This document shows positions 1-3,181 of a stretch of 64,000 nt of DNA, one piece after another. The DNA lies in contig CM000154.2 in the NCBI GenBank assembly GCA_000004695.1, forward strand, positions 2,528,001-2,592,000, given 5' to 3'. A program made the translations under genes and the position numbers. Position 1 is the stretch's first letter; each line of letters opens with the position of its first letter. The notes under the pieces are model-generated. The model saw only the letters and a program-made list of their open reading frames with translations. It did not search any database and was not told where the DNA came from. The DNA is from Dictyostelium discoideum. Taxonomy: Eukaryota.

Positions 1-2852
1 CATTTAAATAACATTTATCAAAAAATTCTTTACGTGATAATGATTGAACTGATTTTTCAAAGTTTTGTTGTTGTTGTTGTTGAATAGTTAAAAGTTTTGA
101 ATCTTGTGTACCATTTAAAATTGAATGAATTAAATTTGAAATTGATGAAACATTTGAAATTACCTCTTTTTCAGACATTTCTTTAAATGTTTTTTTAGTG
201 GTTTTTGGTATAAATGTAAATAAACCATATAGAATTGGATCGATTTGAACTGATTGTAAAAAGATTGGTATTATAACTTTACCTAATTTCTTTGACATTT
301 TCAATTCTTTTCTACACCAAAGTGAGTTAATTGAAGTTTCAGAAATAACAAAAACCACAACATCTGAATTGACAACACCTCTAGTGATTTCAGCTCTCCA
401 ATTACAACCAGCTTGTAGACGATATTCATCCAACCAACAACGTAATGAAAATAAACCAAAGTTTGAACGTAAATTATTTACAAATTCTGAATCTTTATGA
501 GCATAAGATATGAAAACCTCATTTGTGAATAAAATATTTTGAAGATTTGATTTAATATCAGCAGAACAATATTGTAATGGATTTTTCATAGTTTTATCAG
601 GTATACTTTGAGCACCATGTTTACAAAGTAATGATGACAATTGATGATTAGTTTGTGATACTGAAATGTGTAATGGAGTTTGACCTTGTACATCCTTTAA
701 ATTTCTATTACAACCACGTACTAAAAGTATTGTAGCGATTTCATAATTACCAAATCTTGAACAATAATGTAATGGTGTTTCTTTTTGTTTGTTTAATTGA
801 TCGATTGAATAGATTTTATTAATTAAACAATATTCTAAAATGATTTTAGATTTCAAATGATTGTTATTGAATAATGTTGAATAGTGAATTGGAGATTCCA
901 ATGTAACTGGGTCAATTAAATTCAATGGGAATTTATGTTCCAACAATTTAAAAACTTTTAAATTACCATATTCACAACAATCTTTTGCAAGTTTAACTGC
1001 ATGAGAATGTTGAAATTTATTTGATTCAATTATTAATTTAATTAATTGGTAATGATAATTTTCATTGTAATTCAATGATCTCAATAAAAAGCTAGCTTTT
1101 AAATATTCATCATAAACTAAAACCCCAATCCTTTTCTTTAAAACTACAATATCAAATTGAGTTAAATCTTGAAAGTTTTCTTTTAAATTCATTAAAAATG
1201 AATTAAATTTAACACCAAATGTTGTACATTTCAATGGGGTTTCAACAACGATTGTTGTATCTTGTGTACATAAAACCAATGGTGATTTCCAATTAAATGA
1301 TTTTTGATCTTGATTTTTTATTAATATTGGTACTGATGAATACTTTTCCCCGATTTGACCTTGACTATTACTACCCCAACCATATAATCTACAATTACCA
1401 TCTGTGCTACTATTTGATTCAATTGCAATTGAATGATTTCCACCACAACTAATAAATGATATAAATTTATTTGAATTACTATCATATGGATCATCGAAAT
1501 TAACTAATTTAATTTCATAATTCTCCTTACTATCACTATTACCTAAACCTAATTGACCTTGATCATTTTTACCCCAACTAAAAACTTGACCTTCGTTTGT
1601 TAATAATACATTAAAATCTTTACCACATGATACCATTAAAACTTTTTTCAAAAAATTTTGATTTATAATTGAAATTGATCTTTGAATTTGATTTTCAATC
1701 ATTAATTTATTATTACCACCACCACCAATACAATTAGTATTTCCATTTTTATAACCTAATTGACCAAATTTATTTAAACCAACAGTATGAATACCTCTTT
1801 TAATCATAACTGAATGTGAACCACCAACTGAACAATAATCAACTTGATAATGGTCTGCCAATTGCTCAACTTTTTGATTTGATTTAATATTACCCCAAAT
1901 ATAGCATCTATTATCTTCAGTTATCATACATGATAAACCTTTTGATGATTGTTCAAATAATTTAATTGATTTAAAATTATTTGGAAAATCTTTTTCATGA
2001 TATAATGATACATCTTTATTTACAAATTGAAATATATAACCATTATTTTTAATTTTATTATTTCTAAATAAAATAAAATAAAATAATTAATTTTAGTAAA
2101 TTTTAATAATAGTAATAATAATAATAATAAAAATTATTTAAAAAAAACTTACAAATTATCAAATTTTGATTTAGTTTTTATATTTCGATTCACATTATCA
2201 TCATAATGGCCAATATTAAATAAATTAAAATCTTCTTCAATTGGTTTTTCGTTAATTTCTAAATCAATATTCGAAAATAAATTAAAATCAATTTCATCAA
2301 TATCAAAATCATCATCATTATTATTAATGTTTTCTTTATCATCAATTTCATTATCAAAATAAGATGTTGTTGTTGGTGATGTTTTTTGATTCATTGCTAA
2401 TTTTCTATCTGAAATATATGTACTTTTAAATTTAGATTTTTCTTTTTCTTTTTTTTCTTTTTCTTGTCTTTCTTTTTCTTGTTTTTCTTGATTTTCTTTT
2501 TCTTCTTTAGCTTTTTCAGCTAAAACTTGGCTTATTGGTGGCATGTTTTTAAAAACATCACCATCTGCTATTGGTGCACTATCAAGACCAAATAAATCAA
2601 AAAAATCATCATAAGCTTCTTGAATTTCTTGAATTTCTTGAATTTCTTGAATTTCTTGAATTTCTTGAATTTCTTTTATTTCTTCTTCAGGTTCTTGATA
2701 TTCAAATTTAATAATTGTTTCGTCAATAATATTTGAAATTTTATAACCTTGTAAATCATTAATTATTAAATTTTTACCAATACAATCATTAATAAATTTA
2801 TATGACAATATTGGTATACCTAAACTTTTTGATTTTTCCAAAAATAATAATC

Positions 2853-2899
<47 letters not shown>

Positions 2900-3181
2900 G
2901 AAAAATAATAAATTAGATATTACAATAATAATTAAATAATTAAATAATTAAAAAATAACATACGAATTTGATTGAAAATTATAATAATGTTGATCTCTAT
3001 CATATTCATCCAAACCATTACAAAGTATTATATAATTTGTTGAAAATTTTTGAATACAATATTGAACAGTACCACCATTTACTTCAATCTTTTTTAAAAT
3101 TTCATCTTTAATCTTTTTATCTGATGTATCTTTGGTCGGTGAAAAACAAAAAAATTTTAAACTTGAAAATAAACTCGGCAT
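1..3181 (-). CDS. Multidomain BRCT / RCC1-repeat / ankyrin-repeat / TIR-domain protein; 3 exons, C-terminus runs off window start
   Basis: Spliced model complement(join(<1..2063, 2153..2851, 2964..3181)), ATG at 3181. Introns are GTATGT(2963..2958)...TAG and GTAAGT(2152..2147)...TAG and both preserve phase 2, giving one continuous frame. Exon 1-2 spans a BRCT-like fold (…GGTVQYC…[13 protein letters not shown]). An acidic (EIQ)n repeat follows. Exon 3 carries RCC1-like repeats ([27 protein letters not shown]), ankyrin repeats ([19 protein letters not shown]…), then a TIR domain ([17 protein letters not shown]…[22 protein letters not shown]…IIPIF) encoded around plus coordinates ~520 down to ~100. 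Confidence 0.8.

Follow-up and report, generated by a model that had tools for sequence, protein, structure and literature searches.

The first 3,181 nucleotides of a 64,000-nucleotide stretch of Dictyostelium discoideum DNA (contig CM000154.2, positions 2,528,001 to 2,592,000; hereafter the window) encode, on the minus strand, a protein with a TIR domain, and two questions arise at this locus: which of the amoeba's TIR genes this is, and whether its TIR domain acts as an NAD+-cleaving enzyme. A first-pass annotation had left it undecided whether the gene is the defence gene tirA or a paralog. We find that it is almost certainly tirA (DDB_G0289237, Q54HT1) of D. discoideum, in a reference-type (AX4-like) sequence, and we lean towards a regulated, oligomerisation-dependent TIR protein that would produce cyclic ADP-ribose (cADPR) as the best explanation overall.

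The identification rests on the TIR domain itself. Over the span that was compared, residues 820-956 of the window protein and of UniProt Q54HT1 are identical at 137 of 137 positions, and the numbers that N820 and E892 receive in the spliced model are the Q54HT1 coordinates printed in Table S4 of Hurieva et al. (bioRxiv 10.64898/2026.04.20.719644), where the protein is listed with 1336 aa, a TIR domain at 820-956 and catalytic residue 892. Q54HT1 is tirA (PMC7888446), tirA is DDB_G0289237 (PMC4291096), and the reference for the gene is Chen et al. 2007 (cited in PMC4291096 and PMC5758549). Culbertson et al. (PMC13142454) count five TIR proteins in D. discoideum, among which only TirE, besides TirA, has RCC1 repeats. 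As an alternative we weighed whether the gene is a paralog of the RCC1-TIR type, for example tirE (DDB_G0278125), given that RCC1 repeats and TIR domains are both present in TirE and that the comparison with reference TirA covers 820-956. We regard this as highly improbable, because the TIR sequence and its residue numbering equal those of Q54HT1 and because the TIRs of TirE are described as too diverged for Pfam hidden Markov models (HMMs), whereas the window TIR scores E 2e-20 in Pfam; tirE was rejected on that ground. The nearest database proteins, which share the architecture of the window gene, also speak against a paralog, as they are TirA-type orthologs of 1309-1328 aa: two of 1315 and 1328 aa from assemblies labelled D. 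discoideum and one of 1309 aa from D. purpureum, with P0001 91% identical to the query. The choice between tirA and a paralog is thus settled for tirA, and as far as the gene itself is concerned there is nothing new here; it is a correct rediscovery of a gene known since 2007.

The identity matters because of what TirA does. Cells lacking tirA do not grow on Klebsiella and show susceptibility to Legionella, as summarized in reviews including PMC4291096, and passages in the literature describe TirA as required for bacterial killing by sentinel cells and for the release of DNA traps that depends on reactive oxygen species (ROS). Slugs of the knockout are likewise described there as having fewer ROS foci and fewer DNA traps induced by lipopolysaccharide, and as giving contaminated fruiting bodies. 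Outside plants and animals, TIR-based immunity has its founding example in TirA, and the molecular mechanism of TirA has been in question since 2007.

We then considered the gene model and the layout of the encoded protein, for which the features are as follows.

2964 to 3181, minus strand: tirA exon 1, aa 1-73, the first part of the BRCT domain; ATG at 3181, GTATGT donor at 2963
2852 to 2963, minus strand: intron 1, GTATGT...poly-A...TAG
2153 to 2851, minus strand: tirA exon 2, the end of the BRCT domain, (EIQ)n, and a KE-rich and acidic low-complexity linker
2064 to 2152, minus strand: intron 2, GTAAGT...TAG
1 to 2063, minus strand: tirA exon 3, truncated at the window edge (aa 306-993 of 1336); frame open to base 1
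2767 to 3175, minus strand: BRCT domain, aa 3-101, with intron 1 inside; Pfam BRCT at aa 3-97
2617 to 2684, minus strand: 9-bp tandem repeat encoding (EIQ)n; period 9, 7.6 copies and 96% match in TRF
1121 to 2044, minus strand: RCC1-like beta-propeller, about aa 313-620; Pfam RCC1, RCC1_2 and WD40_RLD
530 to 1108, minus strand: ankyrin-type helical repeats, about aa 625-817; paired helices in the AlphaFold2 (AF2) model
113 to 523, minus strand: TIR domain (TIR1), aa 820-956; called from TIR_2, TIR, AbTIR and Q54HT1 identity
305 to 319, minus strand: W888-x3-E892 motif, with the E892 codon GAA at 307-305, aligned with catalytic Glu residues

Joining the three pieces (3181-2964, 2851-2153 and 2063-1) gives 993 aa with 0 stops, the start codon is directly preceded by an in-frame TAA, and the base composition of the window is strongly AT-rich (GC 13-32%) and Dictyostelium-like. 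Given that the join is free of stops and reproduces the UniProt numbering, the three-exon model proposed earlier, with its GTATGT and GTAAGT introns, holds; the counterpart of exon 3 in a sister isolate is a single open reading frame through to the stop codon, and therefore three exons make up the whole gene. For two sister isolates, the models in GenBank (KAM9974574 and KAM9970084) place the acceptor of intron 1 differently; they use a site 27 nt further downstream and drop the nine residues LLFLEKSKS. The stretch they skip corresponds to window 2825-2851 on the minus strand and to L001:6345-6375 in the sister isolate, where the DNA does not differ, the AG upstream of it included, and hence the disagreement is a difference of annotation and not of biology. 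These nine residues at the start of exon 2 form helix alpha2 of the BRCT domain and are conserved in six other dictyostelids, which supports the acceptor at 2852/2851; this acceptor, which is the one of the first-pass annotation and reproduces the Q54HT1 numbering, is thus better than that of the sister-isolate models. Where the earlier description erred was in placing the TIR domain at the C-terminus of the protein. At base 1, where the gene leaves the window, no stop codon has yet been reached, and since the window holds the 5' three quarters of tirA and about 343 residues of the 1336-aa Q54HT1 lie beyond it, the TIR domain is not C-terminal.

TirA is a soluble multidomain protein in which a BRCT domain, an acidic repeat linker, an RCC1-like propeller, ankyrin repeats, the TIR domain and a conserved C-terminal domain beyond the window follow one another. 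The order of modules reported earlier for the part inside the window is borne out by Pfam, TRF, ortholog profiles and Foldseek, with the domains of the 993 aa scored against Pfam at its curated cutoffs. For the TIR domain, Pfam TIR_2 reaches 73.9 bits (cutoff 28; E 2.1e-20) over aa 822-917, so that the HMM check of the family gave a significant match, and Pfam TIR reaches 39.6 bits (cutoff 21.3; E 6e-10) over aa 822-921. The propeller is matched over aa 350-555 by RCC1 in three stretches (E 3.7e-17) and by the RCC1-like domain (RLD; E 3.3e-28), as well as by RCC1_2 (E 1.9e-16), and the ankyrin region over aa 668-772 by Ank_2 (54.6 bits, E 1.7e-14), Ank (41.8 bits), Ank_4 and Ank_5. The BRCT call is marginal, at 23.0 bits (cutoff 21.3) in the full-protein scan and 27.6 bits scanned alone, and it holds because a profile of seven orthologous N-termini matches solved BRCT domains (Mdb1, E 2.4e-7; PARP4, E 1.7e-4; RAP1, RFC1 and Rad4) and because all seven of these orthologs match Pfam BRCT and BRCT_2. 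The (EIQ)n linker varies in length, with 6 EIQ units in the window against 2 in the sister isolates, and the KE-rich and poly-G/N tracts of tirA are likewise variable. An AF2 model of the exon-3 product (aa 307-993; mean predicted local distance difference test (pLDDT) 77.5, predicted TM-score 0.73) has a beta-rich region first, then helical repeats (aa 625-817) and finally a beta/alpha TIR fold at aa 822-955, the last with alternating strands and helices at pLDDT ~80-86 outside the BB loop. The beta-rich part has 21-23 strands in ~310 aa and finds UVR8, RPGR, RCC1 and the HERC2 RLDs in Foldseek at E ~1e-13, with a TM-score of ~0.5 when normalized to these seven-bladed targets. A Pfam scan of the 993 aa (E up to 1) returned no NB-ARC, NACHT or other STAND ATPase, and a reading of the protein as a STAND-NLR receptor, in which such an ATPase is central, was rejected.

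We turned to the residue on which any enzymatic function would depend. The motif SLWCRKEL had been proposed to carry its glutamate where NAD+-cleaving TIRs have their catalytic residue, and this assignment is supported along three lines. In a phmmer search of PDB sequences AbTIR ranks first (E 4e-6), with WCRKE aligned to AbTIR WTNYE (W204/E208). In a MAFFT alignment built from the TIR sequences and catalytic residue numbers of Hurieva Table S4, E892 falls in a single invariant Glu column with SARM1 E642, AbTIR E208, BdTIR E127, TLR4 E750 and ThsB'. Finally, Hurieva et al. apply a structural criterion by TM-align, a Glu C-alpha within 3 Å of ThsB E85, and their Table S3 lists Q54HT1_1 as 'GLU', which is the same assignment of E892; in the AF2 model this residue sits in helix alphaC. 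This Glu was thus already flagged, and the domain that carries it assayed, in that 2026 preprint.

The motif is also conserved among the dictyostelids. We aligned ten sequences from nine taxa, namely the window gene, two sister isolates and seven orthologs (D. purpureum, Polysphondylium, Heterostelium, Acytostelium, Tieghemostelium, Cavenderia and Synstelium), and in 10 of 10 SLWCRKELK is invariant and the BB-loop pattern SxRCWLDxYRLxAGC is present, with LDEYRLQAG invariant or nearly so. An exhaustive HMMER search with the TIR domain returned 21,120 TIR relatives; word-indexed searches with the TIR domain by itself and with an alignment of the C-terminal domain gave no matches, which seems to reflect how the index handles short queries and does not speak for absence. 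A single pairwise comparison, with the ~94%-identical sister isolate, gives ratios of nonsynonymous to synonymous substitution rates (dN/dS) of 0.08 (TIR domain; 3 replacements in 145 codons), 0.23 (ankyrin region) and 0.67 (propeller; 22 in 308), and the counts behind them are small. From these values the TIR domain appears to be under strong purifying selection (omega 0.08). In the same single comparison the propeller (1121-2044) has a ratio about ninefold that of the TIR domain (113-523), and it may be a fast-evolving sensing surface.

Activity data bear on whether the role is enzymatic. The only direct test of the exact domain is that of Hurieva et al., a screen in E. coli in which the isolated TIR of the D. 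purpureum ortholog (F1A3W2) was active and made cADPR. Several points weigh against an enzymatic, oligomerising TirA, the first of them from this same screen: Q54HT1 820-956 was overexpressed and the lysates were scored not active, with no cADPR, 2'cADPR or 3'cADPR and no NAD+ depletion. Some other Glu-bearing TIRs, for example TLR2, are inactive too. To these are added the BB loop of our model, which at aa 847-858 has pLDDT <50, so that the geometry of the pocket is not readable there; the AlphaFold dimer scores of Culbertson et al. (PMC13142454), which for the TIRs of TirA and TirE lie below those among the TIRs of TirB, TirC and TirD; and the nature of three elements of the proposed mechanism, the sensor role of the BRCT, propeller and ankyrin modules, the link to NADPH oxidase and ROS, and oligomerisation itself, all of which we infer. 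The negative assay is nonetheless weak evidence, because an isolated domain was used and only 4 of 29 protist TIRs were positive; Hurieva et al. themselves caution that native oligomerisation is absent from isolated domains and that several possible products were unmeasured. Table S4 of that work, in row 130, calls Q54HT1_1 'Dictyostelium purpureum', and Table S3 says 'Dictyostelium discoideum'; the Table S4 label looks like a clerical error, and the mix-up bears on reading which amoeba TIR was active.

These data bring in the main rival to a cADPR-producing TirA, in which the TIR domain is a non-enzymatic scaffold that signals only through TIR-TIR or TIR-partner contacts, as in MyD88, TIRAP and TLR2, and the Glu of D. 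discoideum has a structural role or is a vestige. Such a role would account for the inactivity of the exact domain in the sole assay run and of further Glu-bearing TIRs, and TirA has modules suited to protein interaction in its BRCT domain, ankyrin repeats and propeller. It fits less well with the active ortholog TIR, which is 76% identical to that of TirA and has no differences in the WxxxE or BB-loop motifs, or with a complete catalytic motif that is invariant across the ten aligned dictyostelid sequences; the assay negatives, as said, count for little in favour of a scaffold. We hold a scaffold role to be possible but less probable than not. With the exact domain negative and the D. purpureum ortholog positive for cADPR, an enzymatic reading of D. 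discoideum TirA is plausible but unproven. The earlier suggestion of an enzymatic, immune-like role therefore stands in its immune part, as the gene is tirA, and its enzymatic part is not established, the exact domain having been negative in E. coli.

If TIR1 is an enzyme, its task as an effector might instead be to deplete NAD+ and to kill the cell or arrest it, as with SARM1 or TirC, and not to make a nucleotide signal. Its Glu and BB-loop motifs are typical of NAD+-cleaving TIRs, and one paralog in D. discoideum, TirC, has potent and toxic NADase activity (Culbertson et al., PMC13142454). In Table S4, however, the TIRs of TirA and of the D. purpureum ortholog both lack a mark for NAD+ depletion, the ortholog being marked for cADPR only, and the phenotype of tirA- cells is a loss of defence, ROS and traps and not of a death response; we consider this alternative improbable.

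The mechanism that we put forward for a cADPR-producing TirA, whose chances we judge to be evenly poised, would run as follows. The N-terminal BRCT, propeller and ankyrin modules would serve as sensing or auto-regulatory surfaces, stimulation would lead to self-association of TirA, and the TIR1 domains would thereby build composite active sites. E892 would then cleave NAD+, yielding the same product, cADPR, that was observed with the D. purpureum ortholog, and cADPR would be the second messenger that lies upstream of NADPH oxidase, ROS and the extracellular-trap response. The TIR of TirA thus keeps its full catalytic signature under strong constraint, set beside a literature of one active ortholog and one negative assay, and the question is sharpened to whether full-length TirA produces cADPR and whether E892 is needed in sentinel-cell defence.

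The remainder of the protein, which lies past the last codon of the window, may bear on this question. These C-terminal ~340 aa are conserved in all orthologs; they gave no Pfam match, and sequence searches of the PDB were negative or weak. When a variable insertion is removed, the region aligns colinearly with TIR1 (hhalign P 4.6e-4), and 2 of 8 members then touch Pfam TIR_2 (best E 0.0016). An AF2 model of the native C-terminal segment of a sister-isolate protein has a confident core (pLDDT 80-93) and a beta-alpha-beta topology followed by two long helices and a disordered stretch, and then by alpha-beta-alpha-beta-alpha-beta-alpha. A Foldseek search with this model returned nothing significant, which is discordant with reading the segment as a TIR fold and which we attribute to the 200-aa insertion. 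A second TIR for TirA is listed neither by Hurieva et al. nor in the preprint of Culbertson et al. (PMC13142454). At the position aligned with the catalytic Glu, this domain has Glu in seven other species and Gln in the two D. discoideum-type sequences, a further point for a scaffold role of TIR1, as the substitution would mean that non-catalytic TIR folds are tolerated in TirA. We raise, as a rather unlikely but specific proposal, that TirA is a tandem-TIR protein in which a second TIR (TIR2), missed by Pfam and carrying a ~200-aa coiled-coil and low-complexity insertion at the BB-loop position, acts by way of its coiled coil as the oligomerisation or regulatory partner of TIR1. Were this so, dependence on TIR2 would explain the inactivity of isolated D. 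discoideum TIR1, and TirA and TirE would be one ancient amoebozoan family of RCC1 and double-TIR proteins.

Upstream of tirA, in the same orientation, lies a class I myosin gene (window 3958-7264, minus strand) with motor, IQ and TH1 tail regions and at least one intron, and the order of myosin and tirA is conserved in a sister isolate. The 776 bp between the myosin stop and the tirA ATG (3182-3957) consist nearly entirely of A/T homopolymer runs, including tracts of 27 and 69 nt. Assemblies labelled D. discoideum (GCA_054859355.1) have only ~94% nucleotide identity to the window (1-7719 against L001), in tirA and the myosin gene alike, which is a deep divergence for one species name. A tRNA-Leu gene (anticodon AAG) is found at window 22132-22213 on the minus strand.

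Set against known systems, the window gene is the same as D. discoideum TirA (DDB_G0289237, Q54HT1), identical in TIR sequence and numbering, with the last ~343 codons outside the window. Its D. purpureum ortholog DICPUDRAFT_159346 (F1A3W2) has the same order of BRCT, RCC1-like, ankyrin, TIR and C-terminal domains, and the two share an identical 10-residue motif in the TIR, with an identity of 42% in the best local alignment of the full-length proteins; they differ in that the isolated TIR of the former was inactive in E. coli and that of the latter made cADPR. TirE (Culbertson et al. 2026) has RCC1 repeats in common with TirA and, if the C-terminal domain of TirA is indeed a second TIR, also two tandem TIR-fold domains; both TIRs of TirE are reported as invisible to Pfam and BRCT or ankyrin domains are unreported for it, and it is by this description that the canonical TIR1 of TirA is set apart.

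Beyond the amoebae, TirA resembles SARM1 and C. elegans TIR-1 as a multidomain cytosolic protein in which a TIR with an alphaC Glu (SARM1 E642) follows helical-repeat regulatory domains. It is without the SAM oligomerisation domains and the ARM sensor of nicotinamide mononucleotide and NAD+ of SARM1, having the BRCT, propeller and ankyrin modules instead; the sequence similarity of the SARM1 TIR to that of TirA is weak (E ~0.7), and NADase activity of TirA is a prediction from sequence. The closest solved relatives are bacterial TIR NADases (AbTIR, ThsB and the PADLOC TIR families), AbTIR standing first among them with its WxxxE motif aligned; the TirA TIR matches several defence TIR profiles, and its nearest non-dictyostelid matches are bacterial multi-TIR proteins. 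In contrast to the bacterial TIRs, that of TirA is encoded by a gene with introns that was inherited vertically within Dictyostelia; its domain context is of eukaryotic type, and it has no operon partners. With plant TNL and bacterial or animal TIR-NLR proteins, TirA shares an immune role and the joining of a TIR to repeat-type putative sensors; its TIR lies C-terminal to the repeats and not N-terminal, and these modules are linked in TirA without a STAND ATPase matched by Pfam in the 993 aa.

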